A stretch of DNA of 64,000 nt from an uncultured bacterium (GTDB lineage Bacteria > Krumholzibacteriota > Krumholzibacteriia > JACNKJ01), in the NCBI GenBank assembly GCA_963695095.1, contig CAVOFT010000001.1, forward strand, positions 3,051,849-3,115,848, given 5' to 3'. Position 1 is the stretch's first letter. Every line of letters starts with the position of its first letter. The translations under genes and the position numbers were made by a program. Below the pieces are notes generated by a model. That model searched no databases and was not told the DNA's origin. It saw only the letters and a program-made list of their open reading frames with translations. This document shows positions 43,782 to 64,000 of this stretch, in pieces.

Positions 43782-46091
43782 CTAGCGAATCAGCACGATG
43801 CGCGCCGCCCGCGAGCGTTCACCCCGATTCATCTCCAAGCGAGCAAAGTAGATGCCGCTTGCGGCGGCTTCGCCCGCATCGTCGCGGCCGTCCCAGCTGC
43901 GCTCGCTCACGCCCGCCAGGAAATGCTCCCGGACAGCGAGGCTGCGCACGCGGCGGCCGGCGACATCGTAGATGAAGAGGCTGGCGCGCTGATCCGCGCG
44001 CAGCTCGAAGCGCAGGGTGACGTCGGCGCGGGCCGCGCCGGGCCGAAATGGACTGGGGTAGCTGCCGGCGAGAGCGAGGAAGGCGGGATTCTCGCTGTAG
44101 GTGAAGACCTCGGCGCCGAGGTCCCCGTTGACGGCCAGGCCGTAGCCCTGGGGCCCCAGGGGCACGCGGCGGCCGCGCAGGCGGATCTCCCAGGGGCCCG
44201 CCTCGGGAGCGATGATCAGCACCCGCTCCACCGTGTTGAGCGCATCGGCTTCGCCACCCGGCACCGATTCGCCCAGCTCCGCGTCGAAGCCGTTGCCGAG
44301 GTAGAGCTGTCCCGAGGGCGAGCGCAGTTCCAGGTCCAGGTCGTTGACCACGGGCTCGGCGACGAAGGGTTCCGCGGGCGGGTCCGTGAAGGCCAGCGTG
44401 ACGGCCAACGGCTCGGCGGCGGACTCGACCTCGAGCCGGTAGATGAGGAGGTCCCCCGTCTCCAGCCCCTCGGCATTGCGCTTCTCGGCCAGCCACAGCT
44501 CGCGGCTGTCGCCCGCGAAGTAGAGCGCCTCGTCGAGCACGAGGTGCCCCCAGCCCTCGCTGTCATTGGGATAGCCCGCCGGCAGGCTGTCCATGGGCAG
44601 GGTGCTGTTGATGAGCAGCGCCCTGAGCAGGGCGCCGCTGGGCACGAGCGAGTCGGCGGCCACGGGCGCGCCGCTCGGCCACCAACCCTCCACCAGGTAC
44701 TGGCGCGCCAGCGCCGCCGCCCCGGCCACGGCGGGACAGGCCATCGAGGTGCCGCTGCTGGTCGTCCAGCCGCAGGGCAGGGCCCGGTTCGCGGAATCGA
44801 TCGCGTAGCCGGGCGCATAGAGCTCCGGCTTGCGGCGGCCATCGGCCGTGGGGCCCATGCCGCCGCTGTAGTGCTCGTCGCAGCCATGGTAGCCGCCGCC
44901 GAAGCTGTCATTGGTGTAGCTCGCGCCCACGGCAAGGGTGCTCTTGGCGTTCTCGGGCGTATAGAGCAAGCCGGCATTGGTGACGGCCCAGATCAGCAGC
45001 GCCTCTTCCTGGTCGTGGCTGAAGGCATCGATGTCCACGCAGAGCTCGGTGTAGCTGGTGATCCCATCCGCGCCCCAGCTATTGGTGTGCACGCGGGCGC
45101 CGGCAGCGTGGTGCAGGGCGAAGTCCGCATAGACGTCGTAGACGCCGGTGGGCACGTAGTTGGAATGCGCCAGCCGTGCCGCCCAGGCGCCGCCCCGCTT
45201 CTGCGCGCCCATCTGATCGTCAATCGGCAGCGCATCGCCCGCCACCGTGCCCGCCGTGTGGGTGCCGTGATTGCTGCCCCAGCCGGCGTACTCGCCGATG
45301 AAGACCACCTTGCGGTGCGCGGGCCCGATGGGCTCGCCGTCCGGATCGGCGAAGAAGCAGCTGGCCGGAGCGAAGTTGGAGTCGATGTGGCCGACGATCT
45401 GCCCCTCGCCATGGAGGCCCCGATCCCAGATCGGCCGCTGATCCGCTGCCGCGCTCTGGACGCTCCAGCTGCTGTCATCGTTGCGGTCGGTGAGCGGCAG
45501 CGTGGGCGAAGCCCAGAGCAGACCGGGCAGGGCGGCTAGCGCCGGCAGCAGCGCGGACGGCGCGCTCAGCCAGAGCCGCGGCCGTGCCGAGCGTGCGCTG
45601 CTGCCCAGCAGTTCGGCGCCGAGGGCCAGGGCCATGTCGGCGCGAAGGGCGATGGGCGTGCCCGGCGCGAAGCTCAAGGTGATCGCCACCGACTTGCCGC
45701 CCGCGCGCGCCGCCAGCGCGGCCAGCTCGGGCGCCAGGCGCCACTCCGGGCGACAGTCCGTGAGCAAAGCGACGCCGGCGAGGGCGGACAGGCGCACCCC
45801 GGCGGCGGCGTCCGCGCGGAGCAGATAGGCGTCATCGGGCAGATAGGCCAGGATCTCGGCGCCGGCGGCGGCGAGCGCATCGCGATCCGCACGGCCAGGT
45901 GCGTGGTCGAACCGCAAGATGCGCAGATCGTCGCTCGCCTCGCTGCCGCGGGCGCTCAGGGCAGGGTCGCCGGCGCGCAGGGTGCCGGCGCGCAGGCGCA
46001 GGGCGCCGCTCTCGCCTGCGGCTGCCGCCTGGGCAAGTACGCCACCAAAGATGAGCAGGACCGCGAGGAGGGGCGGGCGGCGAGCGGGCAT
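43782..46091 (-). CDS. Subtilisin-like S8 serine peptidase with a propeptide and a T9SS C-terminal sorting domain
   Basis: The catalytic triad is D (GHIDS), H (HGTHTAG) and S (GTSMACP). The C-terminus reads SPFRPGAARADVTLRF..GIYFARL..RIVLIR. The signal peptide is at the Met at 46091. Confidence 0.85.
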   Translation of the reverse strand: MPARRPPLLAVLLIFGGVLAQAAAAGESGALRLRAGTLRAGDPALSARGSEASDDLRILRFDHAPGRADRDALAAAGAEILAYLPDDAYLLRADAAAGVRLSALAGVALLTDCRPEWRLAPELAALAARAGGKSVAITLSFAPGTPIALRADMALALGAELLGSSARSARPRLWLSAPSALLPALAALPGLLWASPTLPLTDRNDDSSWSVQSAAADQRPIWDRGLHGEGQIVGHIDSNFAPASCFFADPDGEPIGPAHRKVVFIGEYAGWGSNHGTHTAGTVAGDALPIDDQMGAQKRGGAWAARLAHSNYVPTGVYDVYADFALHHAAGARVHTNSWGADGITSYTELCVDIDAFSHDQEEALLIWAVTNAGLLYTPENAKSTLAVGASYTNDSFGGGYHGCDEHYSGGMGPTADGRRKPELYAPGYAIDSANRALPCGWTTSSGTSMACPAVAGAAALARQYLVEGWWPSGAPVAADSLVPSGALLRALLINSTLPMDSLPAGYPNDSEGWGHLVLDEALYFAGDSRELWLAEKRNAEGLETGDLLIYRLEVESAAEPLAVTLAFTDPPAEPFVAEPVVNDLDLELRSPSGQLYLGNGFDAELGESVPGGEADALNTVERVLIIAPEAGPWEIRLRGRRVPLGPQGYGLAVNGDLGAEVFTYSENPAFLALAGSYPSPFRPGAARADVTLRFELRADQRASLFIYDVAGRRVRSLAVREHFLAGVSERSWDGRDDAGEAAASGIYFARLEMNRGERSRAARIVLIR

Positions 46092-46102
46092 GGCGACGGT
46101 CC

Positions 46103-46453
46103 TCAATGGCTGGTGGGCTTGAAGAAGCTGATCAGGTTGCCCTCCGGATCCCGCACATGGAGGAAGAGCGCCGAGTCGGTCAGCTCCTCCTTGAAGATCT
46201 CCACGCCCCGCACCGCCAGCACCGAGCGCAGGGTGATGGGATCGTCGATCTCGACGTCGAGGAAGGTCGAGTCGCCGGTGGGCGCGTCCCAGCCGCCGGG
46301 CTCGGCCGACACCAAGCCCAGCGTCAGCCCGCCCGTGTCCAGGTAGCAGAAGTTCGGGCCCTCGTCGCTCACGTCCCAGCCCAGCACGCGGGTGTAGAAG
46401 CGCTTCATCTTGCGCAGGTTCTTGCAGCGATAGGTGACGCTCACGGCACGCAT
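46103..46453 (-). CDS. VOC (glyoxalase/bleomycin resistance/dioxygenase) family protein
   Basis: A 116-aa single VOC module (VSVTYRCKNLRKMKRFYTRVLGW...LFLHVRDPEGNLISF). Confidence 0.75.
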   Translation of the reverse strand: MRAVSVTYRCKNLRKMKRFYTRVLGWDVSDEGPNFCYLDTGGLTLGLVSAEPGGWDAPTGDSTFLDVEIDDPITLRSVLAVRGVEIFKEELTDSALFLHVRDPEGNLISFFKPTSH

Positions 46454-46548
46454 GGGCACCTCGGAGGGCGGTGGCGGGCCCGGAGGGCGCCATGCCGCCC
46501 GGGCTGGAAGCAGTCAAGCGGGCGCACGCGCCAAAGTCAAGCTCGGGC

Positions 46549-48537
46549 CTACTTGAGCAGGATCGCGCGCAGCCTCCGGCTCTGGGCGCCGGCCTTGAGC
46601 TCGAGCAGATAGAGCCCCGCCGGCAGGGGACGGCCTGCGGCGTCGACGGCCTCCCAGTCCAGGCGTTGCTCTCCCGCAGGCAAGTCCCGGGCCGGATGGC
46701 TCGCCAGGCGGCGGCCGCTGAGGTCATAGACCGCCAGGCTCACGGTGGCCGGCTCCGCCAGCTCGAAGTAGAGCGCCGTGCGCGGATTGAAGGGATTGGG
46801 CGCCAGGGCGGCGGCCAGCAGGGGCCCGCCTGCGGGGGCGAGGCCGGGTGTCAGGCTCAGCAGCAGGAACTCCTTGCCCTCCGCGTCGAGACCGTAGAGC
46901 TCGTAGCGCCAGGCGCCCGCAGGAGCGGCGTCGCTCAGGCGATAGCGCCAGTCGCCGCTCGCCTCCACCGGCAGGAGCGGCGCGGCATTCAGACAGAGGG
47001 GCAGCGCGAGCGGCTGCTCGCCGATGGCCGCCAGGACCTCGCGGCGCGACAGCGCGCCGGCCGCGAAGGCCTCGGCCTGGGCCAGGCGCTCGGCCCGATC
47101 CGCGGCGTCGCCCGCGGGCAGGCGGTACACGTTGAAGGGCAGGGGCTCGCTGCAGCGCCAGTCTAGCTCGACGCGGCCGGAGCCCGCGCGCAGCGCGCGC
47201 CCGCTGGCGGTGGCCAGCGCGGGAGCCGCCGTGAGATCGGCGCCGCCTTCGATGGCATAGGCCCAGCCGCCGCTGCTCAGGTACTGCGTGCCGGCCAGCA
47301 CGTCGGGGCTGCCCGTGCCGGAGAGATCCGCCGTGCCGCGCACGCTGTAGAGCCGCGCGCCCGTGTTGAACATCCACAGGGTGTCGCCCGTGGCGCCGTT
47401 GAAGAGGTAGGTCTTGGTGTCGAAGGAGCCGCCGACGACCTCGTCGATGCCGTCGCCGGTGAGATCGTCCACGCGGTCCACGGCCCAGAAGTCGCCGCCG
47501 TTGAGGGTGCCGGCCCAGGCCTGCCAGATCAGCGTGCCGTCCTGGCCGTCGATGACGCGCAGGGCGCGCTCCCAGGAGCCGATGGCGATGTCCCGCCAGC
47601 CGTTGCCGTTGACGTCGCTCAGGGTGACCAGGCGCATGATGTAGTTGTAGCTGCCGTTGTCGAAGGTCCAGCGCAGGGCGCCTGTCGCGCCGTCGAGGCA
47701 GCGCACCTGGCCGGAAGCGCTCCAGGAGCCGACGACGAGTTCGGCCACGCCGTCGCCGCCGATGTCGTCGATCAGCGCCGTGGCCCAGTTGCTCGCGCCC
47801 ATGTTGCGCTGCCAGATGAGCTGGCCGACGCCGCCCAGGCTGCCGCCGCTCACGCAGTAGACGTAGTGGTCGTTGTCGCCCGCGCAGAAGAGCACATCCT
47901 GCTTGCCGTCGCCGTTGACGTCGGGCAGGGCAAGGGCGCGATAGAGCGCGTCGGCCGCCGGGAAGCGCCAGAGGACGCTGCCGTCGGCGCCGCTGAGCAG
48001 GTAGCCGCAGTTGGCGTCGCTGCCCAGTGCACAGGCCACCTCGGGCAGGCCGTCGCCGTTGAGGTCGGCCAGCCAGCTCACGTCGTAGACCCAGCCGGAA
48101 TCGATCGTGAGATAGGAGTCGAAGGTCCACAGCAGCTCGCCCGTGCGGCCGTCCACGGCGTGCACGCTGCGATTGCCCCAGGCCGTGCCCAGCAGGACGT
48201 CGGGAAAGCCGTCGCCCGACAGGTCGGGGCAGATCTCGAGGCACTCGTCGCCGTCGCCGCCGCCGTCGCTCACACCGCTCGAAGGGCGGATCGACCAGAG
48301 CACCGGCGGCGGGTCGCCCTGGCCGCCGGAAACCAGGTAGAGGTGATCGCCCGCGGCGCCGGCGTCATAGGTCTCGATGACGATGTCGCTGACGCCGTCG
48401 CCGTCGACATCCGGGAGCGTGGCCATGGCATTGATGTCCTCGATGCCCTGGAAGCGCCAGAGCTGATCGCCGCCATCGGCGAGGGCGGCGCCGGGCAGGC
48501 AAGCGAGGAGCAGACAAGCGGTCAGGCGGGTCGACAT
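46549..48537 (-). CDS. FG-GAP/VCBS-type beta-propeller protein with a T9SS C-terminal sorting domain
   Basis: Signal peptide MSTRLTACLLLACLPGAALA. It has multiple D-x-N/D-G-D-G repeats (DVDGDG, DLNGDG, DVNGDG, DVNGNG). The C-terminus reads NPFNPRTALYF..GLYLLEL..LRAILLK. Confidence 0.75.
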   Translation of the reverse strand: MSTRLTACLLLACLPGAALADGGDQLWRFQGIEDINAMATLPDVDGDGVSDIVIETYDAGAAGDHLYLVSGGQGDPPPVLWSIRPSSGVSDGGGDGDECLEICPDLSGDGFPDVLLGTAWGNRSVHAVDGRTGELLWTFDSYLTIDSGWVYDVSWLADLNGDGLPEVACALGSDANCGYLLSGADGSVLWRFPAADALYRALALPDVNGDGKQDVLFCAGDNDHYVYCVSGGSLGGVGQLIWQRNMGASNWATALIDDIGGDGVAELVVGSWSASGQVRCLDGATGALRWTFDNGSYNYIMRLVTLSDVNGNGWRDIAIGSWERALRVIDGQDGTLIWQAWAGTLNGGDFWAVDRVDDLTGDGIDEVVGGSFDTKTYLFNGATGDTLWMFNTGARLYSVRGTADLSGTGSPDVLAGTQYLSSGGWAYAIEGGADLTAAPALATASGRALRAGSGRVELDWRCSEPLPFNVYRLPAGDAADRAERLAQAEAFAAGALSRREVLAAIGEQPLALPLCLNAAPLLPVEASGDWRYRLSDAAPAGAWRYELYGLDAEGKEFLLLSLTPGLAPAGGPLLAAALAPNPFNPRTALYFELAEPATVSLAVYDLSGRRLASHPARDLPAGEQRLDWEAVDAAGRPLPAGLYLLELKAGAQSRRLRAILLK

Positions 48538-48677
48538 GAAAGACCTCCGGGGGCTGGAGCGGCTTAAGTATAGCGCCGCGGCGCGCGCGGAACAACGCAG
48601 TAGGCCGCCCTGGGGTTGTCCTATCCGGCCAGTCGGGCTATACTCTTGTCGTGCCTGCAATCACTGATGGGGAGGGA

Positions 48678-49775
48678 ATGATGCGGAGGCTGCTGTTGCT
48701 GGCCTGTGCCCTGTGCTGCCTGCCCGCCGCTCGCTGGAGCGCCGCCGCCACCTGGACCGTGGCCCAGAACGGCAGCGGCGACTTCACCACGATCACCGCC
48801 GCGCTCGCGGCCGCTGCGAACCAGGATTCCATTCTCGTCGGGCCCGGCACCTATAGCGAGCCCTTGCTCGTCGACAAGCAGCTGACCCTCGTCAGCAGCC
48901 AAGGCGCGGCGGCCACCGTCCTGGATGCCAACTACGCCTTCGAGCTCCTGCGCTACGTGAGCGGAGGCGGCGGCCAGTTCTCGGGCTTCTCGCTCAGGCG
49001 GGCGGACGTCGGTCCCGCTGGAGAGGGCGGCGCCATCCGTGTGAACTACTGCAACAGTCTGCTGATCAGCGACTGCGTGTTCGAGGACAACTGGGCCGAC
49101 TACCAGGGCGGCGGCCTCGCCATCGGCCATGCCAGCATCGTCGAGGTCGTCGATTGCAGCTTCATCGAGAACTACGCCCCCACCCATAGCGGCGCTGCCG
49201 TGGCCATCCAGAGCAGCCATCTCAGCTTCGAGCGCTGCTCGTTCATCGAGAACCGCACGGGGGTCTTTTCGGGCGCCATCGCCGCCCATAGCAGCGTCCT
49301 GGATGTCCAGGACTGCCTCTTCCTGCGCAATCGCAGCTACGACGTCGCCGGCGCCATCTACCTCTACTTGTCGGGGGGTCTGATCCGGAACAACACTTTC
49401 CACGACAACCGCTCGCCCGGACGGGCAACGGTGGTGATCCACCAGAGCGACGCCGCCATCGTCGAGCGCAACATCTTCTCTGCCGATCAGGCCGGCTACG
49501 GGCTGCAGTTCTACCAGGGCGGCGGCGGCCACGCCTGCAACCTCTACTGGGACAACGCGGCGGGCGCGCTCTCCGGTGCCGCCCTCGCCGCCGATGAGTT
49601 GATCGCCGATCCTCTCTTCTGCAACGCCGCCGCGGAGCACTTCGAGCTCTATGACATGTCGCCGGCCGCCGCCGACCACAGTGCCTGCGGGCAGCTCATC
49701 GGCGCTTTCCCGGTGGCCTGCTCGACGACAGGGGTCGAGCGCTCCTCCTTCAGCGCGATCAAGGCGCTCTACTAG
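48678..49775 (+). CDS. Secreted right-handed parallel beta-helix repeat protein
   Basis: Signal peptide MMRRLLLLACALCCLPAARWSAAA. PbH1-type repeats include GGAIRVNYCNSLLISDCVFEDN, GGLAIGHASIVEVVDCSFIEN and AAVAIQSSHLSFERCSFIEN. Confidence 0.7.
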   Translation: MMRRLLLLACALCCLPAARWSAAATWTVAQNGSGDFTTITAALAAAANQDSILVGPGTYSEPLLVDKQLTLVSSQGAAATVLDANYAFELLRYVSGGGGQFSGFSLRRADVGPAGEGGAIRVNYCNSLLISDCVFEDNWADYQGGGLAIGHASIVEVVDCSFIENYAPTHSGAAVAIQSSHLSFERCSFIENRTGVFSGAIAAHSSVLDVQDCLFLRNRSYDVAGAIYLYLSGGLIRNNTFHDNRSPGRATVVIHQSDAAIVERNIFSADQAGYGLQFYQGGGGHACNLYWDNAAGALSGAALAADELIADPLFCNAAAEHFELYDMSPAAADHSACGQLIGAFPVACSTTGVERSSFSAIKALY

Positions 49776-49926: not shown

Positions 49927-53561
<3,635 letters not shown>

Positions 53562-53576: not shown

Positions 53577-54579
53577 ATGGAGATGAAGACCCGCTACCTG
53601 GGCCTGGAGCTGAGAAACCCGCTCATGCTCTTCAGCCTCGCCCGTCAACCTGGACCTCGACGCGGCCCGCCGCTGCGAAGATGCCGGCGCCGCGGCCCTC
53701 GTGATGCCCTCGCTCTTCGAGGAGCAGATCCTCGCCGAGTCGCGCGAGATCGACCACTACCTCACGCACGGCACCGAGAGCTACGCGGAGGCGCTCAGCT
53801 ACTTCCCGGCCCAGGGCGACTACCGCCTGGGCCCGGAGCGCTATCTGGAGACCCTGCGCGCGCTCAAGTCGAGCCTGGAGATCCCTGTCATCGCCAGCCT
53901 CAACGGCGTCTCCGAAGGCGGCTGGACGGCCTACGCCCGCCACATGGAGGAGGCCGGCGCCGACGCCATCGAGCTGAACGTCTACTTCATCCCGACCGAC
54001 CCCCAGCTATCGGGCCGCGAGGTGGAGCAGCTCTACGTCGACGTGCTCAGCCGGGTGAAGGCCAGCGTCAAGATGCCGGTGGCCCTCAAGCTCAGCCCCT
54101 TCTTCAGCAACATGGCCGAGATGGCCGCCCGCTTCGACGCGGCCGGCGCCGACGGCCTGGTGCTCTTCAACCGCTTCTACCAGCCCGATCTCGACCTCGA
54201 TGAGCTGGTGGTGCGCCCGAACATCCTGCTCAGCACGCCGCAGGCAATGCGCCTGCCCCTGCGCTGGATCGCCATCCTGCACGGGCACCTGCGCGCCAGC
54301 CTGGCCGCCACGAGCGGCATCCATACCGCGACAGACTGCCTGAAGATGCTCATGGCCGGCGCCGACGCCGTGATGCTGGCCTCGGCGATCTACCAGCGCG
54401 GGCCGGAGGTTTTCGCCGAACTGCTCGGCGGCATGCAGACCTGGATGGAGGAGCGCGAGTACGATTCCGTGGAGCAGCTCAAGGGCAGCATGAGCCAGAA
54501 GTCGGTGGCGGAGCCGGCGGCTTACGAGCGCGCCCTCTACGTGCGCGCCCTGCAGCGCTTCGCCGGTCACGCTGGCTAG
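53577..54579 (+). CDS. Dihydroorotate dehydrogenase-like (class 1 PyrD / DHPD-like TIM-barrel flavoprotein), with one frame switch near 53640
   Basis: MEMKTRYLGLELRNPLM... is followed by ORF 53701..54579 with IPVIASLNG, AGADAIELNVY and GADGLVLFNRF. It is adjacent to the PFOR gene. Confidence 0.65.
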
Positions 54580-54623
54580 CGCCTGCTGCGGGCGCCCCGC
54601 CGTCTTTTCGCGAAGGGAGTCCC

Positions 54624-56711
54624 ATGCTCGAGGCCCTGCTCATGCCGCGTTCGGTCGCCATCGTCGGCGCCTCCGCTGCGCCCGGCAAGGTCGGCCAGGC
54701 CGTCCTTGCCAACATGATTGCCGCCGGCTTCCCGGGCCGCATCGTGCCCGTGAATCCGAAGGCCGACACCCTGCTCGGCCTGCCCTGCCTGCGCAGCCTC
54801 GCCGACCTGGACGAGAAGCCGGACCTGGTGGTCATTGCCGTGCCGACCCCGGCCGTGAAGGGCGCGGTGACCGACGCCATCGCCGCCGGGGTCGGAGCGA
54901 TCATCGTCATCACCGCCGGCTTCAAGGAGACGGGTCCGGAAGGCGCCGCCCTCGAGGCGGAGATCACCGCGCTTTGCCGCCGTGCCGGCGTGCGCCTGAT
55001 GGGCCCGAATTGCCTGGGGCTCATCAACACGCAGGCTAAGCTGAATGCCTCCTTCGCCAAGCAGACGCCCAGCGTGGGATCGATCAGCGTGCTGTCCCAG
55101 TCCGGCGCTCTCTGCACAGCCATCCTGGACTGGGCAGCCGGCCGCCATCTCGGCCTCGCCAAGCTGATCAGCATCGGCAACAAGGCGGATCTGGACGAGA
55201 CGGACTTCCTCGAAGCCCTGGCCGAGGACGAGGCCACGCGGGTCATCGTCGGCTATCTCGAAAACATCACGGCCGGGGACACCTTCATCAAGCGCGCCGA
55301 GGCCGTGGCTGCCCGCAAGCCCGTGGTCATTCTCAAGGTGGGTACCACCGCCGCGGGTAGCAAGGCGGCCTCCTCGCATACGGGCAGCTTGGCCGGCGCG
55401 GACATCGCCTACGGCGCTGCCTTCAAGCGCGCGGGCGTCATTCGCGCCGAGGGCTTCGAGGACATGTTCGACGCCGCCACGGCGCTGGCCATGCAGCCCC
55501 TGCCCCGCGGCAACCGGGTGGCGATCATCACGAATGCGGGCGGGCCAGGCATCATGGCCGCCGACGCCGTCGAATCCTCGGGCCTCGTCGTGGCCAGCCT
55601 GGGCGAGGAGCTGCGCTCCGAGCTGGCCCGCCAGCTACCCGCAGCCGCCAGCGTGGGCAACCCCATCGACGTGCTCGGCGACGCCGGTCCCGACCGCTAC
55701 GCGATGGCCGTGGCCGCTGCCCAATCGGCGCCAGCGATCGATGCGATCATCGTCATTCTCACCCCGCAAGCCATGACCGACCCCGCCGCCATCGCCCGCG
55801 CGATCGCGCAGCACGCGCATGGCGCCAAGCCCCTGCTCGCCGTCTTCATGGGCGGCCAGGAGGTGATGCCCGGCCGCGACGAGCTGGTGGCGGCCGGCCT
55901 GCCCGACTACAGCGCCCCCGAGCGAGCCGTGCGCGCCCTCAAGGCGATGGTGGAGTACGCCGCCTGGCGCGAGCGGCCGCCGCGCATCGTCACCCGCTTC
56001 CCCGTCAACCGGCGGCGCGTCGAGCGCATCCTCAGCCGCCACCTGCGTACGGGGCGCAAGCAGATGGGTGAGGTCGCCGCCAAGGAAATCCTGCGCGCCT
56101 ACGACTTCAACGTGCCGGCCGGCCGCCTGGCCACCACCGCGGATGAGGCGGTGGAGATCGCCGAGCGCGTGGGCTATCCGGTGGCGATGAAGATCGCCTC
56201 CCAGCAGGTGGTGCATAAATCCGACCTGGGCGGCGTCCAGCTCAGCCTGGCCACGCCGAACCAGGTGCGCGACGCCTTCGAGCTGATGATGATGCGCATC
56301 CCCAAGCGCGTGCCCCACGCCCGCCTGGACGGCGCCTACGTCGAGAAGATGTGCGCACGCGGCACGGAGGTCATCATCGGCATGACCCGCGATCCCCAGT
56401 TCGGCCCGATGATGATGTTCGGCCTCGGCGGCATCTTCGTCGAGGTGATGAAGGACGTCACCTTCTACCTGGCGCCGATCACCGCCGACGAGGCGATGCA
56501 GATGCTGATGGGCACCCGCTCCTACGCCCTGCTCAAGGGTGCCCGCGGCAAGGAGGCCGTCGACTTGGCAGCGATCGCCAGCGGCCTGCAGCGCATCAGC
56601 CAGCTCGCCACGGATTTTCCGCAAATCGCCGAGCTGGACATCAATCCCTACATCGTGGGCGAGCTGGGCAGCGAGCCCGTGGTGGCCGACGCCCGCATCA
56701 CCCTGGCTTGA
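54624..56711 (+). CDS. Acetyl-CoA synthetase (ADP-forming), fused alpha/beta subunits (ACD)
   Basis: An intact 695-aa ORF with a CoA-binding N-terminus (SVAIVGAS..GKVG), succinyl-CoA-synthetase-like flavodoxin and ligase domains, and an ATP-grasp C-terminus. Confidence 0.85.
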   Translation: MLEALLMPRSVAIVGASAAPGKVGQAVLANMIAAGFPGRIVPVNPKADTLLGLPCLRSLADLDEKPDLVVIAVPTPAVKGAVTDAIAAGVGAIIVITAGFKETGPEGAALEAEITALCRRAGVRLMGPNCLGLINTQAKLNASFAKQTPSVGSISVLSQSGALCTAILDWAAGRHLGLAKLISIGNKADLDETDFLEALAEDEATRVIVGYLENITAGDTFIKRAEAVAARKPVVILKVGTTAAGSKAASSHTGSLAGADIAYGAAFKRAGVIRAEGFEDMFDAATALAMQPLPRGNRVAIITNAGGPGIMAADAVESSGLVVASLGEELRSELARQLPAAASVGNPIDVLGDAGPDRYAMAVAAAQSAPAIDAIIVILTPQAMTDPAAIARAIAQHAHGAKPLLAVFMGGQEVMPGRDELVAAGLPDYSAPERAVRALKAMVEYAAWRERPPRIVTRFPVNRRRVERILSRHLRTGRKQMGEVAAKEILRAYDFNVPAGRLATTADEAVEIAERVGYPVAMKIASQQVVHKSDLGGVQLSLATPNQVRDAFELMMMRIPKRVPHARLDGAYVEKMCARGTEVIIGMTRDPQFGPMMMFGLGGIFVEVMKDVTFYLAPITADEAMQMLMGTRSYALLKGARGKEAVDLAAIASGLQRISQLATDFPQIAELDINPYIVGELGSEPVVADARITLA

Positions 56712-56725
56712 GGCCGGGAGAGACC

Positions 56726-58612
56726 ATGCGTACGGCGCCAACGACAGGACCACAGATGGACGAGAACTGGCAGCAGACCTATCACGATCAGATCCTCACC
56801 CCCGACACTGCGATCGGCAAGATCAAGCCGGGCCAGCGCGTCTTCATCGGCACGAGCTGCGGCACGCCGCAGGCCCTCGTCAAGGCCCTGGCCGAGCATG
56901 CGCCGGACCTGTCCGACACCGAGATCGTCCACATGCTCAGCATGGGCGATGCCCCCTACGCCCAGCGCGAGCTGGCGGGCACCTTCCGGGTGAACAGCTT
57001 CTTCATCGCCCCCAACGTGCGCGATGCCATCCAGGAGGGCTTCGGCGACTACACGCCGATCTTCCTGTCCGAGATCCCGCGCCTGTTCGCCTCGGGCCAG
57101 CTGCCCCTGGACGTCGCCCTGATCCAGGTCAGTCCGCCGGACGCGCGCGGCTTCGTCTCGCTCGGCATCTCGGTGGACATCGTCAAGAGCGCGGCCGAGA
57201 ATGCCGCCCTCGTCATCGCCCAGGTCAATCCGCAGATGCCGCGCACCCATGGCGATAGCCTGGTGGACATCAACGACATCGATTGGCTGGTGCCGGTGGA
57301 CGAGCCGCTCATCGAGTTCCAGACCGTCGAGCCCGACGACCTCACGCGCAAGATCGGCGAATACGTGGCGGCCCTCGTCGACGACGGCTCGACCGTGGAG
57401 CTGGGCATCGGCCGCATTCCCCACGCGACGCTGGAGTTCATGGCCGGCAAGCGGGAGATCGGCATCCACACCGAGATGCTCACCGACCAGATCATCGACC
57501 TCATCGACAAGGGCGTGATCACCGGCGCCCGCAAGTCGCTGGACCGGGGCAAGGTCGTCGCCAGCTTCTGCATGGGCACGCGACGGCTCTACGATTACAT
57601 CGACGACAACCCGACCTTTGCCTTCCATCCCACGGAGTACGTCAACGATCCCTTCGTGATCAGTCGCCAGCAGAACATGGTGGCCATCAACGTGGCGCTG
57701 GAGATCGACCTTACCGGCCAGGTCTGCGCCGACACCATCGGCGGCCGCTTCTTCTCAGGAATCGGCGGCCAGGTGGACTTCAACCGCGGCGCCGCTCGCT
57801 CCCACGGCGGCAAGGCGATCATCGCCCTGCCCGCCACGGCCAAGGGCGGCAGCATCTCGCGCATCGTCGCCCGGCTCTCGCCTGGCGCCGGCGTGGTGAC
57901 CACCCGCGGCGACGTGCACTACGTCGTCACGGAGCACGGCGTGGCCTACCTGCACGGCAAGAGCGTGCAGAATCGGGCCCTCGCCCTGATCAGCATTGCC
58001 CATCCGGATTATCGCGCGCAGCTCCTCAAGGACGCCGTGGATCTCAAGTACGTGCGGCCGGAGATGCTCGCCGTGGGCGACCGCCTCGTGGTCGGGCCCC
58101 AGGAGCTGCGCAGCAGCTTCGTCCTGGACGACGGCACCCAGATCAACTTCCGGCCCATCCATCCCACGGACGAGCCGCGCATGAAGGAGCTCTTCTACGC
58201 GCTCAGCCGGGAGACCGTCTACTACCGCTTCATGCAGGCGCTGACGCGCATCCCCGAGCGGCAGGTGCTGGATTTCGTCTTCGTGGATCATCGCCGCGAT
58301 GTGGCCATCGTGGGCGCAGTGCCCGAGGCTCATGGCGATGAGCTCGTGGCCATCGGCCGCTACTACCTCGACCCCGTCACCAATCGCGCCGAGGTGGCCT
58401 TCACCGTGCGCGACGGCTGGCAGCGCCGCGGCATCGGCACCTACATGCTGCGCAACCTGATCACGATCGCCCGCCGCAACGGCATCAGCGGCTTCACGGC
58501 TGAAGTGCTGCGCGAGAACCGGCCGATGCGCTCGGTCTTCCACAACAGCGGCTGCAAGGTGAGCACGCGCCTGGAGGGCGGCATCTACCACTACGAGCTG
58601 GAGTTCGTGTAG
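56726..58612 (+). CDS. Acetyl-CoA hydrolase/transferase family protein fused to a C-terminal GNAT acetyltransferase domain
   Basis: The N-terminal ~470 aa are the AcetylCoA_hydro N and C domains (4-hydroxybutyrate CoA-transferase-like). The C-terminal ~160 aa are GNAT (RPIHPTDEPRMKELFYALS...WQRRGIGTYMLRNLITIAR). Intact. Confidence 0.8.
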   Translation: MRTAPTTGPQMDENWQQTYHDQILTPDTAIGKIKPGQRVFIGTSCGTPQALVKALAEHAPDLSDTEIVHMLSMGDAPYAQRELAGTFRVNSFFIAPNVRDAIQEGFGDYTPIFLSEIPRLFASGQLPLDVALIQVSPPDARGFVSLGISVDIVKSAAENAALVIAQVNPQMPRTHGDSLVDINDIDWLVPVDEPLIEFQTVEPDDLTRKIGEYVAALVDDGSTVELGIGRIPHATLEFMAGKREIGIHTEMLTDQIIDLIDKGVITGARKSLDRGKVVASFCMGTRRLYDYIDDNPTFAFHPTEYVNDPFVISRQQNMVAINVALEIDLTGQVCADTIGGRFFSGIGGQVDFNRGAARSHGGKAIIALPATAKGGSISRIVARLSPGAGVVTTRGDVHYVVTEHGVAYLHGKSVQNRALALISIAHPDYRAQLLKDAVDLKYVRPEMLAVGDRLVVGPQELRSSFVLDDGTQINFRPIHPTDEPRMKELFYALSRETVYYRFMQALTRIPERQVLDFVFVDHRRDVAIVGAVPEAHGDELVAIGRYYLDPVTNRAEVAFTVRDGWQRRGIGTYMLRNLITIARRNGISGFTAEVLRENRPMRSVFHNSGCKVSTRLEGGIYHYELEFV

Positions 58613-58626: not shown

Positions 58627-61086
58627 CTAGCGGATCAGCGTGAACTTCCCCAGCTTGTCGGGATAGCCGGGCGCCGCCACCGTGAACAGGTAGACGCCAC
58701 TGGCCACCTGCTGGCCGTTGCGGCTGATCAGGTCCCAAGTTCGAGTGCCGGTGGCCGCGTAGTCCCCGCCCGCAATGGCCGCCGCGGCATCGTGGTGCAG
58801 CACCTGCACGAGATCCCCGGCCAGCGTCCAGATGCGGATGGTGCAGGGCGCGGCCGGCAAGTGGCGGAATTCCACCTTCAGTCCGCTCGGGTCCTGCGCG
58901 TTGGGTTCCAGCGCCCAGGGCGCCATCGATTCCCGCGTGGCCGGGTTCGGCACCACGTAGACGGCATCGGCGTCGTAGGCCCAGCTCGGCTGGCTCGCGC
59001 TCTGGGGCACCGCCAGCCGGAAGCCGTTGCTCGGGCTCCCCTCCAGGCCGCGGGCGAGACCGATGACATGCCCGTTTGCGTCCAGGATCGGCAGATGGTC
59101 CTTGGCCGTCACCGCGTAGAAGTAGGGCACGCCCAGATTGACGTCGACGTCGCGCAGGCGGTAGTAGCGCCGCCCCTGCGGCAGCCCGAGCACGTCGCGG
59201 GCGAGGCCGATGGCGGTATCCGCGTCGGCGATGCTGAAGCCCGCCGGCGGCAGCCAGTCGCGCGCGCGCTGCAGCCAGGGCATCTCCAGCAGCACCTCGC
59301 TGTACCAGGTCACGAGCGTGGGATCGACATTGGGCTGGTAACGCAGGAGGTCCAGGCTGCGATCGGGCTTGAGGCCGTTGACCAGGTCCACCTCGTCCAG
59401 GAGCATCCACAGGTCTCCGGGCGGGCCGGTGGCGGCGCTCGTGCCCTGCGGCCGCGTCCAGTCGTCCGCGCGCCAGATGCGGTAGCCCTCGAAGTCGTAG
59501 TCGCCGGTCAGCTCGTCGGGCACCTGCTCGCTGAAGTTGTCCCAGAAGAGCTGATTGCCGCGCTCGCTGGGCCAGACACGCAGCGAGGGCGGCGGCGGCG
59601 CCGAGGCGGTGAGCCAGGGCAGCCGGTACTCGGCGCCGCCCACGCCCGTGCACCATGGGAAGAAATTGTCGCAGCGGCTGTTGGTGAAGCTCTCCCACTG
59701 GCAGTCGGCGTTCACCCACACCCGGCTGCCCTTGGGCACGACCAGCGGATCGGGGCTCATCCCGCAGGGATCCCACCACTCGATCGTGCGCAAGGGATCG
59801 TAGATGAGCGACTCGGCGCAGTCCTTGCCGGTATCGGGATCCTCGTCCACGTCGAGCCAGAGCCCCTCCTCGGCGAAGGCGAGCTGCGTGGCGAGATCGA
59901 GCAGGTCCTCGGCGTCCGCCGCCGCGAGGAAAGCCAGCCGCACGCGGGCGCTGTCGCCGGGCGCGAGCTGGAAAGGCCCCACGGAGATGAGGTAGCGCCA
60001 GTCGCGCTCGCGTTCGTCCGGTGCGTCGAAGTGGCGCCGGCTGAGCAGCTCGTAGCGCTGATCGTCATTGACCGCCTCGCCGCCCTCGTCGAAAGGCGCG
60101 ATGCGTGAGAAGCGGTGCCAGGCGTTCAGCTCCGGAGTGCCGCTGAACCAGGGCGCCCACTCGCCGAGCAGATCAGTGCTGTGCTCAAGGAGCATCAGGC
60201 CGAGCCGGCCCGGCGCGGGGCGGCTGGCGGCCGCGTCGCCGTCGCCGTCCCAGGCCTCGACGAGCTGCACCCTGAAGGCTCGGCTGGCCGGCCGCTGCGT
60301 CACGCAGAGGGTCTCGCGACGCAGGCGGACGCGATCGTCATCGAAGCCGCTGGCGCTGGAGCGATGGCCGACATCGGGATCCACGTAGAGCCCGATGTAG
60401 ACGTCCTCGAGCTGGCCACCGCTCACGTTGCGCACCTGGTACTCGAAGGCGATCGCACCGGCCAGGTCCGCCTGTTCCCACTGATAGCTCTCCTGGGTGA
60501 CCTCGATGCCGAGCGGACTGTGATCGGGCGAGCCGAGCAGGGCCTGCGGGTGATCGTCGCGGTAGCGACAGCGGAACATCTGGTTGCCGATGGCGGCGAA
60601 GTCCTCGTCCACGCGCCCATCGCCGTCGTTGTCCTCGCCGTCGAGAGGATCCTCGTCGACGGCCCCATCGGCATCGTCGTCGGGTTGAGCGCTCTGCAGG
60701 CGATTGCCGCCCGGCGCTCCGGCGAAGCTGGCATGAATGCTGTCCCAGCCGTGGTCGCCGGGAAAGAACTCGGGATCCGGCCAGGCCGTGCTCACGCGCG
60801 GGAGGCCATTGCGCCGCGCGCCTACCCACAGTCCGGCAATATAGAGGAACTCCACGCCGCTGCCGGCCGGCCACTGGGCCGAGGGCGCCCAGGAGATGTC
60901 CAGGTTCTCGCCGGGGAAGGAGCCGAGGAGGCCGTAGTTGGTCACGTTCATCTGCAGCTCGCCCACGTTGTGGACGAAGCGGCCGTCGATGACCTTCGTG
61001 CCCAGGGCCGGCGGCGCCGATTCGCTCCGCGCCGACCCGCGGCCGGAGCTGCCGATCAGCAGCCCGCAGACCAAGGCCATCTGCAT
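58627..61086 (-). CDS. Large secreted hypothetical protein with an Asp-rich Ca-binding-like region and a T9SS C-terminal sorting domain
   Basis: The probable start is MQMALVCGLLIGSSG (signal peptide). The long upstream extension of the ORF looks like GC-driven run-on. There is an acidic DDDADGAVDEDPLDGEDNDGDGRVDED stretch. The C-terminus reads GVYLFTVAAPGYPDKLGKFTLIR. Confidence 0.6.
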   Translation of the reverse strand: MQMALVCGLLIGSSGRGSARSESAPPALGTKVIDGRFVHNVGELQMNVTNYGLLGSFPGENLDISWAPSAQWPAGSGVEFLYIAGLWVGARRNGLPRVSTAWPDPEFFPGDHGWDSIHASFAGAPGGNRLQSAQPDDDADGAVDEDPLDGEDNDGDGRVDEDFAAIGNQMFRCRYRDDHPQALLGSPDHSPLGIEVTQESYQWEQADLAGAIAFEYQVRNVSGGQLEDVYIGLYVDPDVGHRSSASGFDDDRVRLRRETLCVTQRPASRAFRVQLVEAWDGDGDAAASRPAPGRLGLMLLEHSTDLLGEWAPWFSGTPELNAWHRFSRIAPFDEGGEAVNDDQRYELLSRRHFDAPDERERDWRYLISVGPFQLAPGDSARVRLAFLAAADAEDLLDLATQLAFAEEGLWLDVDEDPDTGKDCAESLIYDPLRTIEWWDPCGMSPDPLVVPKGSRVWVNADCQWESFTNSRCDNFFPWCTGVGGAEYRLPWLTASAPPPPSLRVWPSERGNQLFWDNFSEQVPDELTGDYDFEGYRIWRADDWTRPQGTSAATGPPGDLWMLLDEVDLVNGLKPDRSLDLLRYQPNVDPTLVTWYSEVLLEMPWLQRARDWLPPAGFSIADADTAIGLARDVLGLPQGRRYYRLRDVDVNLGVPYFYAVTAKDHLPILDANGHVIGLARGLEGSPSNGFRLAVPQSASQPSWAYDADAVYVVPNPATRESMAPWALEPNAQDPSGLKVEFRHLPAAPCTIRIWTLAGDLVQVLHHDAAAAIAGGDYAATGTRTWDLISRNGQQVASGVYLFTVAAPGYPDKLGKFTLIR

Positions 61087-61184
61087 GGCAATGCGAAACT
61101 CCGGCCGCACCCCGTCCTCCCCTCGCCGGTGGCGCTTCTGTAGAGATAGCATGGATTTAGCGCGAGTGCGAGCCCGGAGCGACG

Positions 61185-64000
61185 CTACTTCACGAGCAGC
61201 AGGGTGCGGCTGGCGCGAAGGCCTCCGGCCTCGAGACGACAGAAGTAGGCCCCCGAGGCGAGCGGCGCGCCGTCGGCGCCACGGGCCTCCCAGCGCAGGC
61301 GATGCTCGCCCGCGGGCAAGGGCGCCGCGGCGAGCGGCCGGGCCACCTCGCGGCCCAGCACATCGAGAATGCGCAGCGTCACGCGAGCCGCCGCCGGCAG
61401 ACCGAATCGCAACTCGGTGGCGGGGTTGAAGGGATTGGGATGGTTGGGCGCCAGGTAGAAGCCGCTGGGCGCCGGCAAGCTCGCCGTCAGCGTGCAGCCC
61501 ACGGTGTAGAGGCCCACCAGGGCCGCGCAGTCGTTGTTCTCGGGCAGACAGGGCGAGGCATCGGCGAGCGTGTACTCGGCTCCCGTCACCGCGCAGTAGA
61601 GCGGATCCGCAGCGAAGCAGTCCCCGCCCGGCGTCTCCGCGTAGCCGGCATAGGGCTCGCTGCCATTGCCGAAGATGTCGCTGCAAGTCCAGAGCGTGGA
61701 ACTGGGAGCGTCCGCCTCGTGGAGAGCGCCGCCACTCTGGGCCTCGTTGAAGGTGACGAGCAGGCGTTCGAGCGCGAGCGTGGCCGCGTAGGCCAGGCCG
61801 ATGGCCCCGCCCCGCGCGGCCTGATTGTCGCTGAGCGTGGACTGGGCGATCTGCGGCGCGCCGCCGCTGAGGTAGACGGCGCCCCCGCTCTCGGCAGCCA
61901 GGTTGTCGTGCGCGAGCAGGTGACTGAACTGGGGAGCGCCGCCGAAGCTGGCCAGGCCGCCGCCGTTGCCGGTAACCGTGCCGTAGGCCTGGTTGCGGCG
62001 CAGGACCAGTCCCTCCACCTGCGACAGCGAGCCGCCCAGCACCAGGCCGCCGCCGGCGCCCTTGGCGCGACAGTCCTCGATCACCAGATTGCGCAGGGTG
62101 GGCGAGGCATTGCTCACGCGAATGCCGCCGCCGTTGTTGGATTCCCACTCGTAGTAGACGTGGCCGCCGCGAATCGTGAAGCCGTCGACGACGGCCCCTG
62201 GCCCCTCGCCGTGCTCGAAGTTGATTGCCCGGCCGGCCAGCTCGCAGTCGATGATCGTCAGGGCCGCCCCGCCTTCGCTGCGCAGCACCACGTCGTGGCC
62301 GCCGAAGTCGAGCCGCTTGTTGCCCGGGCCGCGATAGGTGCCCGGCGCCACGAGCACGGTGTCGCCGTCGACCGAGACGTCGAGAGCGGATTGGATGTCC
62401 GCGTACTCCGCCGGCACGCGGTGCAAGGTGCCGCGCTGGGCGAGGAAGTCCTGACCGGAGATGTCGGCGATGACGTCGGTGTAGCTCCGGTAGGGCGGCG
62501 TGAAGGTGTAGTCTTGCGCCAGGGGCACGATGATCCCCGTCCAGTGGTCCGGCACGAGGACGAGGTAGTCGCCCCCGGCGTCCGTGTGCGCCTCGTAGAA
62601 GCTGCCGTAGACCCCGGCGCCGACCAGGGGCGAGCCGCCCGGGTCCGCGATGCGGCCGGCGATCGCGCGGTGGATGTTGTCGCAGCCCACGGGCAGCGGT
62701 CCGATGTCCAGGCCGCAGCTGTTGTTGGCGGCCGCGCAGGGGGAGTCCGCATCGAGATGGAAGTCGCGGGTGAGCGGCGCGCAGAAGAGCGGGTTCGCGC
62801 TGAAGTTGCCGTCCTGGCCGCTCAGGTCGACGGCGCTGCCCCTCCAGTCGCCGCCGGCGTTGCCGAAGACATCGCTGCAGCTCGCGGCGAAGCCGGCGCC
62901 GCCGGCGGCCTCGAGGCCGCCGCCCTCGAAGCTGAAAACCGCCAGGCTCCGCGTCAGGGTAACCAGGCTGGCCTGATCCGCCCAGATCGCCCCGCCGCCG
63001 TTGTCGGCGCTGTTGAAGGCCAGCACGCTGGCCACGAACTCAGGCGTGGACGCCAGGCAGTAGAGAGCGCCGCCTCGATTCGCCGCGCTGTTGTCGTAGA
63101 GCTGGCAGCCCTGGAAGCTCGGGGCCGCGCCGGCGGCGCAGAACAGGCCGGCGCCATCGTCCGCAGCGGTGTTGTGGTGAATGACCAGATCGATCGCGGT
63201 CGGCGAGGCACTGATGCAGGCGAGGCCGCCGCCGTCCGTGAGGCCGTGGTTTTGCATGAGGATGAGATTCTCGAGCGTCGGCGCGCTGCCGATGCACAGG
63301 ATGCCGGCGCCGGTCGTGTGGCGACCGTTCTTGATCGTGAAGCCGCTCAGCTTGGTCGCCGCCGTCTCGCCGCTCACGAAGAGGAAGCCGGGGGCCGCCG
63401 TCTGGCAATCGATGACGGTGACGGCCGGTCCGCCCGAGCTCAGGATGACCAGGTTCTTGCCGCCCGTGCTCAGGTTGCGATTGCCCGTTCCGGTGTAGGT
63501 GCCGGGCGCGACGCGCACGGTGTCGCCCGGCACGGCCACATCGATGGCCGCCTGCAGCGTGGCATACTCCAGGGGCACCTCGTGCACGTGGATGTTGCCC
63601 GTGCACGCCTCGCCGAAGCGGCCCATCTGCACGCCGCAACCGTTGCCCCCGGGCAGGCAGGGCGAGCTCTCGTGCAGGCCCAGCGGCGTACCGTCGCCGG
63701 CGGCCCCGCAGAACACCGGGTCGGTGGCGAGGTTGCCGCCGCTGCCGGTGGCATCGGCCAGGGTGCCGGCGTAGCCGGGAGCGCCGCCGCCCCAGACGTC
63801 GCAGCAGGTGATGGCCAGGGCGGCGGACCCGGCGCCGTGCAGGCCGTCCGGCAGGTTCAGCGCCAGCAGGCAGGCGCTCAGCGTGGCCAGCGCCGCCCCG
63901 TCCAGCGAGAGGGCGCCGCCGACGCGCGCGGCCGTGTTGGTGTGGATGGTGGAGCCGTCCACGCTCGGCAGCGCCGCCCCCTCGCAGCGCAGGGCGCCGC
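61185..64000 (-). CDS. Very large parallel beta-helix repeat protein with a T9SS C-terminal sorting domain (5' end beyond the window)
   Basis: There are more than 20 PbH1-like repeats (GGALYC..., GGAIWADQ..., GGGIRVSNASPTLRNLVIEDC...). The C-terminus reads HPNPFNPATELRF..GAYFCRLEAGGLRASRTLLLVK. The ORF is open to the window edge. Confidence 0.7.
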   Translation of the reverse strand, partial: GALRCEGAALPSVDGSTIHTNTAARVGGALSLDGAALATLSACLLALNLPDGLHGAGSAALAITCCDVWGGGAPGYAGTLADATGSGGNLATDPVFCGAAGDGTPLGLHESSPCLPGGNGCGVQMGRFGEACTGNIHVHEVPLEYATLQAAIDVAVPGDTVRVAPGTYTGTGNRNLSTGGKNLVILSSGGPAVTVIDCQTAAPGFLFVSGETAATKLSGFTIKNGRHTTGAGILCIGSAPTLENLILMQNHGLTDGGGLACISASPTAIDLVIHHNTAADDGAGLFCAAGAAPSFQGCQLYDNSAANRGGALYCLASTPEFVASVLAFNSADNGGGAIWADQASLVTLTRSLAVFSFEGGGLEAAGGAGFAASCSDVFGNAGGDWRGSAVDLSGQDGNFSANPLFCAPLTRDFHLDADSPCAAANNSCGLDIGPLPVGCDNIHRAIAGRIADPGGSPLVGAGVYGSFYEAHTDAGGDYLVLVPDHWTGIIVPLAQDYTFTPPYRSYTDVIADISGQDFLAQRGTLHRVPAEYADIQSALDVSVDGDTVLVAPGTYRGPGNKRLDFGGHDVVLRSEGGAALTIIDCELAGRAINFEHGEGPGAVVDGFTIRGGHVYYEWESNNGGGIRVSNASPTLRNLVIEDCRAKGAGGGLVLGGSLSQVEGLVLRRNQAYGTVTGNGGGLASFGGAPQFSHLLAHDNLAAESGGAVYLSGGAPQIAQSTLSDNQAARGGAIGLAYAATLALERLLVTFNEAQSGGALHEADAPSSTLWTCSDIFGNGSEPYAGYAETPGGDCFAADPLYCAVTGAEYTLADASPCLPENNDCAALVGLYTVGCTLTASLPAPSGFYLAPNHPNPFNPATELRFGLPAAARVTLRILDVLGREVARPLAAAPLPAGEHRLRWEARGADGAPLASGAYFCRLEAGGLRASRTLLLVK

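Follow-up and report, generated by a model that had tools for sequence, protein, structure and literature searches.

The 64,000-nucleotide stretch of DNA analysed here (hereafter the window; contig CAVOFT010000001.1, positions 3,051,849 to 3,115,848) comes from an uncultured bacterium of the Krumholzibacteriota and encodes a protein in which a CoA-transferase domain is fused to a C-terminal GNAT acetyltransferase domain. Its gene lies immediately downstream of a gene for an ADP-forming acetyl-CoA synthetase (ACD). Judged from its sequence and its relatives, the fusion is best described as a real, very widespread protein and as a novel architectural variant of the Pat-like lysine acetyltransferases that is tied to ACD. 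On balance, we favour a role as a Pat-like lysine acetyltransferase at the acetate/acetyl-CoA node, in which a CoA-transferase would replace the dead ACD-like domain of Pat. The basis of this proposal is comparative genomics only, namely the observed domain identities, catalytic residues and gene linkage. The features that carry the argument are the following.

54624-56711, plus strand: ACD, of the fused alpha-beta type, 695 amino acids, intact, recognised by its Pfam domains.
56726-58612, plus strand: CoA-transferase-GNAT fusion, 628 amino acids, a single open reading frame (ORF); an alternative start at 56756 gives 618 amino acids.
56822-58036, plus strand: CoA-transferase domain of the fusion (AcetylCoA_hydro and AcetylCoA_hyd_C; AbfT/Cat2/RipA type), recognised by Pfam, PDB matches and Foldseek.
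58145-58558, plus strand: Pat-type GNAT domain of the fusion, recognised by Pfam, the NF058543 profile and alignment to MtPat, SlPatA and PatZ.

The two domains belong to one continuous protein. The ORF contains neither a stop nor a frame change between them, and the phase of G+C at third codon positions (GC3) is steady over 56716-58612, except for one 89-nucleotide (nt) blip in the unfiltered plot. A GGGAGAG sequence stands 4 nt 5' of the ATG at 56726, and relatives use the equivalent upstream ATG. A public protein collection holds a 100% identical protein of 618 amino acids. Database searches returned at least 8000 scored proteins, all passing an E-value of 1e-10; the best 120 of these homologues are all 618-637 amino acids long, and 119 of them carry both the CoA-transferase Pfam domains and a GNAT domain, while one lists no GNAT hit. 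In each of 80 species loci, the fusion finds a single continuous match over approximately residues 2-617. Within the fusion, Pfam places PF02550 (AcetylCoA_hydro) at residues 33-192 (E 5e-31) and PF13336 (AcetylCoA_hyd_C) at residues 284-437 (E 3e-66). The C-terminal part scores 34.3 bits with PF00583 (Acetyltransf_1; cut-off 20.7) and, at residues 474-611, 28.0 bits with PF13302 (Acetyltransf_3; cut-off 25.4). The protein falls under every NCBIfam equivalog cut-off that it touches. An AlphaFold model based on 120 homologues (pLDDT 84, pTM 0.71) confirms both folds; an earlier model from a 20-sequence alignment (pLDDT 54) was discarded. In the Foldseek search of the model, no solved structure spans both domains, the best query-normalised TM-score being 0.67.

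An assembly or frameshift error that joined two separate genes has to be considered here, as the window does hold frameshift patches (in the pyruvate:ferredoxin oxidoreductase (PFOR) gene at 50.3-53.6 kb and in a Ser/Thr kinase gene at ~6.3-8.8 kb). Against the 87% identical relative L081, however, the ACD and fusion genes contain no frameshifting indels, with just one in-frame 18-nt difference at the N-terminus. The independent homologues of near-constant length and the uninterrupted matches in the species loci likewise speak against such an error, which has a negligible probability; an assembly artefact is excluded as the origin of the fusion. A preliminary description of this DNA, made from its letters and ORFs, had read an acetyl-CoA hydrolase/transferase fused to a GNAT domain. 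The domain searches and the homologues bear this out: the C-terminal part scores as GNAT, and neither a frameshift nor a stop interrupts the gene between the domains.

The first ~430-440 residues are akin to solved proteins of the 4-hydroxybutyrate-CoA-transferase family, the PDB matches being 9vag (E 1e-146), 2oas (E 3e-122), 3eh7 and 3gk7 (AbfT, E 6e-112). Foldseek of the model gave TM-scores of 0.92 to 3gk7 and 0.95 to 2oas from Shewanella, with RipA from Yersinia within the range 0.92-0.95, at 35-46% identity. The Glu of the GIHTEM motif is encoded at 57473-57475 (Glu240 of the 618-residue form), and a GIGGQ motif starts at 57758. H-T-E and GIGGQ are invariant across the 120 homologues. 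In the wider set of full-length sequences, the Glu is present in 204 of 204 and GxGG in all but one. We take this Glu to be the thioester-forming nucleophile, a role established for AbfT, RipA (E249) and AarC (E294); mutant structures of RipA E249 and AarC E294 are listed among the Foldseek matches. With the equivalog model for butyryl-CoA:acetate CoA-transferase (TIGR03948), the domain scores 310.8 bits, below the cut-off of 674.8, so its substrate is not assignable. By fold and motifs, the domain is a family I CoA-transferase of the AcetylCoA_hydro/4-hydroxybutyrate type and looks catalytically live. The preliminary description had seen in it the acyl-CoA-binding partner of the GNAT domain; with a catalytic Glu kept in every full-length member, it is more than a binding fold.

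The last ~170 residues find their best solved matches in MtPat (4ava, 4.5e-18), SlPatA (1.6e-17), E. coli PatZ (6e-17) and Sulfolobus Pat; small-molecule GNATs such as diamine acetyltransferase match at only ~5e-4. The Pat match reaches beyond the core GNAT fold to an upstream segment (FRPIxPxDE, YYRF). The Glu of an NRAEVAF motif (codon 58391-58393; Glu546 of the 618-residue form) aligns with SlPatA E123 and PatZ E809, and a QRRGIG motif (Gly codon at 58430) aligns with the PatZ P-loop G822-G824, residues whose roles have been described (PMC12184503). This Glu is invariant across the 120 homologues and is replaced by Asp or Gln in a few distant ones. The profile NF058543 (acetyltransferase Pat, a mycobacterial equivalog) matches the GNAT part only, at 8e-27 and with 93.9 bits, under its cut-off of 460. 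By its nearest relatives and aligned residues, the GNAT domain is of the Pat type. When the GNAT part was searched against 1.84 billion representative sequences, the best 150 clusters included ~20 of fusion length. Its near relatives also include stand-alone GNATs and Pat-sized proteins of ~830-967 amino acids with the GNAT domain at either end.

In the partner ACD, the Pfam domains CoA_binding, Succ_CoA_lig, Ligase_CoA_2 and ATP-grasp_5 are all found, together with the phospho-histidine motif SHTGSLAG (His is residue 252, its codon starting at 55377). Its PDB matches include 8wzu (E 3e-154) and PatZ (E 6e-100), the latter aligned over the full length. The protein scores 554.5 bits with TIGR02717 (cut-off 567.15) and 629 bits with a 4-hydroxybutyrate-CoA ligase model (cut-off 1300). 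These data clearly point to the class of NDP-forming acyl-CoA synthetases, with acetate as the predicted acid. Since PatZ aligns end to end with this neighbouring ACD, and the GNAT domain lies nearest to MtPat, SlPatA and PatZ, the parallel proposed in the preliminary description, a Pat with a different acyl-CoA-binding partner, is accurate. 4-Hydroxybutyrate was considered as a common substrate, since this acid figures in the names of the best PDB entries matched by ACD (8wzu) and by the transferase (AbfT family); the idea was rejected, both proteins being far under the corresponding equivalog cut-offs. Across the related loci, the SHTG motif is kept in every full-length partner ACD but one, that of a Desulfonatronovibrio metagenome-assembled genome (MAG; L015:7870-9951), which has SMPDTG in its place and no His there. 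In a Myxococcota MAG (L007:7890-9962), the motif is altered to AHLGEPP. Both of these ACDs are more diverged from the window proteins than the fusions beside them (47% and 54% identity versus 63% and 69%, for L015 and L007, respectively).

The linkage of the two genes was evaluated in the 80 species loci, where recurrent neighbours other than ACD were obtained from unbiased clustering of all flanking ORFs. ACD adjoins the fusion in 52 of the 80 loci, plus one in which it is truncated by the contig end. In 42 of these loci it precedes the fusion on the same strand, at a median distance of ~54 nt; in 7 it follows the fusion, and in 3 the two genes diverge. The identity of the fusion to its counterpart in the window rises and falls with that of ACD (r = 0.88, n = 46), which indicates that the pair travels as a cassette. 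On this pattern, ACD and fusion form a two-gene acetate/acetyl-CoA-node cassette that appears to be inherited as a unit, and their linkage, for which the preliminary description had suggested a check in related genomes, is strongly conserved. The other recurrent neighbours in the 80 loci were counted as follows.

HDAC-family gene within 10 kb: 26 loci.
AMP-forming acetyl-CoA synthetase (Acs) within 10 kb: 17 loci.
Either HDAC or Acs within 10 kb: 34 loci.
HDAC or Acs, with no ACD at all: 8 loci.
CBS-pair protein: 9 loci.
SfMCT-type monocarboxylate MFS transporter: 9 loci.
DRTGG protein resembling the N-terminal part of Pta: 8 loci.

Neighbour genes of these kinds usually number one to a few among the thousands of a bacterial genome, and we infer that the observed frequencies far exceed chance. 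The HDAC neighbour resembles class I: HDAC8, HDAC2 and RPD3 are among the PDB entries that it matches best, behind an HDAC6 domain; the deacetylase AcuC belongs to the class I HDACs (PMC8556138). The Acs neighbour passes TIGR02188 at 1001 bits, and the MFS neighbour scores 442 bits with the NCBIfam model of the SfMCT L-lactate transporter, above its cut-off of 320. Loci of the Desulfobulbaceae type are arranged as HDAC, CBS protein, ACD and fusion, echoing acuABC. In two further loci (L018, L167), an Acs-MFS(-HDAC) group stands divergent from ACD and fusion. The recurrence of AcuC-like deacetylases and Acs beside the putative writer fits a regulatory acetyltransferase.

Two further arrangements were observed. 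One locus (L166:1812-9881) contains an AckA-Pta fusion (754 amino acids), Acs, ACD and the CoA-transferase-GNAT fusion in one operon-like run, with ACD and fusion overlapping by 4 nt; this run unites all three acetate/acetyl-CoA routes. In a distant branch that includes archaea (L049, L068, L074-L078, L080), the order is fusion, ACD and an AAA_26+DRTGG protein that is like the regulatory N-terminal half of phosphotransacetylase. The DRTGG protein is mostly confined to this distant group.

Taken in order, the proposed mechanism would operate as follows. ACD would convert acetyl-CoA, ADP and Pi to acetate, ATP and CoA. The CoA-transferase, standing in place of the inactive ACD-like domain of Pat, would form a glutamyl-CoA thioester from acetyl-CoA or another short acyl-CoA, and would thereby read the acyl-CoA:carboxylate ratio and control the tethered GNAT domain. 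The GNAT domain would then acetylate a lysine of an acetate-activating enzyme, for which the AMP-forming Acs is the most likely target and the partner ACD a possible one. With a writer co-transcribed with ACD, the acetate released by ACD would not be re-activated by Acs at the cost of ATP. A class-I HDAC-type, AcuC-like deacetylase, found beside the cassette in about one third of the genomes, would reverse the mark. Control of bacterial metabolism by acylation has its textbook example in the reversible lysine acetylation of acetyl-CoA synthetase. The preliminary description had suggested ACD or central metabolism as the object of regulation; Acs, which Pat classically acetylates, is no less likely to be the substrate than ACD. 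In PatZ, binding of acetyl-CoA by the regulatory domain activates the GNAT domain (PMC12184503). From the comparative data we infer that the substrate is a protein, and likewise its identity, the allosteric coupling and the physiological direction.

Several observations weigh against this proposal. Twenty of the 80 species loci show no recurrent neighbour, and a tblastn search of the 64-kb window found no HDAC, Acs, CBS or DRTGG gene. The AlphaFold model is not a reliable guide to how the two domains contact each other. In the literature, we found no report of ACD acetylation or of its post-translational control. Furthermore, the conserved CoA-transferase, unlike the dead domain of Pat, is no less compatible with a working enzyme than with a sensor. 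The 21 examined loci that have neither ACD nor HDAC (two of them with Acs within 10 kb) share no alternative partner: their 68 flanking proteins matched 101 Pfam families, none with more than two hits. An MFS transporter gene in the window, 20 kb off (32052-33422, plus strand), encodes a protein 40% identical to the SfMCT-type transporter that accompanies Acs elsewhere, and no Acs gene lies beside it.

A working CoA-transferase could instead supply the GNAT domain to which it is attached. With acetyl-CoA delivered by ACD, it would convert a free acid to an acyl-CoA other than acetyl-CoA (propionyl, butyryl, 4-hydroxybutyryl, succinyl or lactyl), and lysine acylation would report the organic acid that is present. 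The complete catalytic apparatus agrees with such an activity, and the family has varied acid specificities, including 4-hydroxybutyrate (AbfT), that of RipA, and succinate/acetate (AarC). The nine loci with a neighbour of the SfMCT L-lactate type point in the same direction. There is a precedent in trans in E. coli, where the CoA-transferase YdiF provides lactyl-CoA that the GNAT YiaC places on lysines in lysine lactylation (PMC9636275). YdiF and YiaC, however, are two proteins whose genes are not reported to be linked; YdiF belongs to another subfamily (EXGXXG), and YiaC is not of the Pat type. The neighbouring genes, moreover, encode acetate enzymes (Acs, AckA-Pta, ACD) and none for other acids, the nearest Pat-type GNATs are acetyltransferases, and the structural model is uninformative on a channel or a domain interface. 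We consider acyl supply by the CoA-transferase to be rather improbable.

Alternatively, ACD and fusion may be mainly a metabolic pair, in which the CoA-transferase passes the CoA of fermentation acyl-CoAs on to acetate and ACD gains ATP from the acetyl-CoA so formed. The GNAT domain would then have a side function, either self-regulation or the acetylation of a small amine, for instance a polyamine, and the HDAC-family neighbour would be an acetyl-polyamine amidohydrolase. A tight, order-conserved adjacency is typical for enzymes of one pathway, the transferase domain is close kin to the solved 4-hydroxybutyrate-CoA-transferase-family proteins, and most carriers ferment anaerobically or reduce sulfate. 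The weak matches to diamine acetyltransferase can be counted on the same side, as can the amidohydrolases that the HDAC family also includes (PMC8556138). The GNAT domain is nevertheless ~13 orders of magnitude nearer to protein than to polyamine acetyltransferases, in a match that includes the pre-core segment, and class-I protein deacetylases are the closest kin of the HDAC neighbour. Fusions that have no ACD beside them repeatedly have Acs as a neighbour. The Desulfonatronovibrio ACD has lost the phospho-histidine yet is still in place, which a partnership based on catalysis alone can hardly explain. A chiefly metabolic role is therefore judged unlikely, and a Pat-like lysine acetyltransferase remains the reading that we prefer.

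The published bacterial lysine acetyltransferases fall into five architectural types, whose regulatory domains are NDP-forming acyl-CoA-synthetase-like (types I and II), cAMP-, ACT- or NADP-binding (type III), or absent (PMC8556138; PMC12184503). A regulatory part made of AcetylCoA_hydro and AcetylCoA_hyd_C, as in the fusion, occurs in none of them. PatZ (YfiQ), of type I, shares with the fusion the GNAT clade, the catalytic Glu and the P-loop, as well as a large N-terminal acyl-CoA-binding domain and the acetate/Acs setting; the gene order ACD, then CoA-transferase-GNAT, is colinear with the ACD-like-GNAT domain order of Pat. In contrast, the GNAT domain of PatZ carries an NDP-forming acyl-CoA synthetase fold, whereas that of the fusion carries a CoA-transferase fold. 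The regulatory domain of Pat has no catalytic His (PMC8556138), while the CoA-transferase of the fusion keeps its catalytic residues and the ACD beside it is a separate protein with its catalytic His. MtPat/MsPat, of the cAMP-regulated type III, provide the best solved GNAT match and the same layout of an N-terminal regulatory part followed by GNAT, but the fusion has no cyclic-nucleotide-binding domain and lies far under the NF058543 equivalog cut-off.

A second likeness concerns the Bacillus subtilis acuABC/acsA system. Related fusion loci share with it a GNAT writer, a CBS protein (AcuB-like), a class-I HDAC eraser (AcuC-like) and Acs, and sometimes repeat its divergent layout (PMC8556138). 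AcuA, however, is a stand-alone GNAT, whereas the writer considered here has a CoA-transferase and is coupled to ACD; the likeness lies in the parts of the locus. An AcuABC-like locus is thus seen among the relatives and not in the window itself, where HDAC, CBS and Acs are missing. For the N-terminal 440 residues, AbfT, Cat2, 2oas, RipA and AarC have the same fold, catalytic Glu and GxGG, although their solved members are stand-alone proteins of ~430-510 amino acids.

As a more speculative extension, to which we give only a small weight, the ACD-fusion cassette may constitute a sixth class of prokaryotic lysine acyltransferase, in which a live CoA-transferase gates or feeds the GNAT domain and ACD docks onto it as a "split Pat". 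The cassette would then be a candidate relative or precursor of type I Pat, because the domain order of Pat (ACD-like, then GNAT) matches the gene order. If this were true, the loss of the phospho-histidine in the Desulfonatronovibrio ACD would be a step towards the dead regulatory domain of Pat.

The fusion is distributed far beyond the Krumholzibacteriota. The best 120 homologues are 67-100% identical, and carriers among the best homologues belong to the Planctomycetota, Kiritimatiellae, Deltaproteobacteria/Polyangia, Abyssubacteria and others; the nearest named relatives are found in Krumholzibacteriia/Latescibacterota MAGs. Database names are purely generic ("GNAT family N-acetyltransferase" or "acyl-CoA hydrolase/GNAT superfamily N-acetyltransferase"). 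In a collection with one genome per GTDB species, at least 598 stretches encode a relative, and archaeal carriers are found in the Thermoplasmata, Bathyarchaeia, Thorarchaeota and Woesearchaeota. Identities of ~70% occur between phyla, in bacteria and archaea, an unusually high conservation. In the literature, we found no paper that describes the fusion, within a coverage that is incomplete and that makes an earlier description possible. The first 20 species loci (L001-L020) show 59-70% identity across Planctomycetota, Verrucomicrobiota, Kiritimatiellae, Lentisphaerae, Myxococcota, Thermodesulfobacteriota, Delongbacteria and a Trueperaceae MAG, which points to a very strong constraint, to horizontal spread of the cassette or to a combination of the two. 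Two loci have unusual copy arrangements: a Thorarchaeota MAG has two tandem fusions (L055:8648-12389), and a deltaproteobacterial MAG has a 431-residue stand-alone CoA-transferase directly upstream of the fusion (L062:8617-11857).

The window has a G+C content of ~70%, and its genes were therefore placed by ORFs, homology and the GC3 frame plot. This placement agrees with the gene order given in the preliminary description: PFOR, a flavoprotein resembling dihydroorotate dehydrogenase (DHOD), ACD and the fusion, all on the plus strand. The features upstream of ACD are the following.

49948-53561, plus strand: PFOR (nifJ-type pyruvate:ferredoxin oxidoreductase), found by tblastn with the intact 1194-residue PFOR of the relative L081 as pieces in all three frames.
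53577-54579, plus strand: DHOD-like TIM-barrel flavoprotein (NF005741 subfamily), recognised by its NCBIfam score, with a 1-nt insertion at ~53627.
54588-54600, plus strand: weak terminator-like hairpin between the DHOD-like gene and ACD, from a consensus scan with 1 site against 3.2 expected by chance, not significant.

The linkage of the fusion to PFOR, which the preliminary description had grouped with it in one module, is confined to the closest relatives: the four-gene order is common only to those with 81-87% identity, and PFOR accompanies the fusion in none of the 80 species loci. The DHOD-like gene keeps company with PFOR instead. Among metagenome loci (L086-L165), 61 have sequence 5' of the DHOD-like gene, and in 56 of these the gene immediately before it, in the same orientation, is PFOR; ACD lies downstream of it in none of the 41 with enough downstream sequence. 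Because PFOR is absent from the 80 fusion loci and ACD from these 41 loci, PFOR and the DHOD-like gene are, on gene-order grounds, a conserved pair of their own, and the window juxtaposes two separate conserved pairs. The DHOD-like protein scores 409 bits with NF005741 (cut-off 303) and is only distantly related to PyrD (2.6e-13). The catalytic Cys of DHOD, in the N-x-S-C-P-N loop, is missing (ELNVYFIPT versus ELNISCPNV in PyrD), which sets the protein apart from DHOD proper. It contains a single Cys overall and thus has no Fe-S site. In Propionibacterium, PFOR is flanked by DHOD-like and GltD-like genes, for which a ferredoxin-linked redox complex has been proposed (PMC7650540); no GltD-like gene flanks PFOR in the window.

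In L081, PFOR (1194 amino acids), the DHOD-like protein (333 amino acids), ACD (695 amino acids) and the fusion (622 amino acids) are all intact and closely spaced. DNA alignment to this relative reveals 23 frameshifting indels in the window between 50340 and 53627, 22 of them in PFOR and one in the DHOD-like gene (~53627). All but two (21 of 23) are insertions of 1-2 nt, mostly outside homopolymer runs, and the GC3 plot switches frames across PFOR. A second indel-rich patch, 43 kb from the first, affects a Ser/Thr protein kinase gene on the minus strand (PYMAPEQ motif, ~6.3-8.8 kb) that is scattered over three frames. Most other genes have long stretches of constant GC3 phase, with short segments also at 15.4-17.2 kb. 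Because the indels are patchy and dominated by insertions, the amino acid identity within fragments is good and the genes are intact in relatives, the PFOR and DHOD-like indels most likely reflect a locally unpolished stretch of a long-read assembly. A true PFOR pseudogene was considered and is unlikely, given the insertion bias, the high identity of the fragments, the second broken gene and the intact relatives.

Elsewhere in the window, promoter and terminator scans returned nothing exceeding chance, and a tRNA-Asn(GTT) at 17359-17433 (minus strand) is the sole RNA gene found with Rfam. The four metabolic genes are flanked by large genes for secreted or surface proteins (43782-49775 and 58627-63962), including beta-helix, S8 peptidase and FG-GAP proteins and an 824-residue protein that matches no Pfam family; several of these proteins end in a FlgD_ig-type domain.

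As a Pat-like enzyme, the fusion would add an architectural type that lies outside the five-type scheme, carried by hundreds of species from numerous phyla of Bacteria and Archaea; many of these carriers are uncultured anaerobes without a studied Pat. Its regulatory module resembles a working enzyme that forms a covalent CoA adduct, and could tie the balance between acyl-CoA and free acid directly to protein acylation. The fusion is also a concrete candidate for the regulation of ADP-forming acetyl-CoA synthetase, or for a regulation that is coordinated with that enzyme.

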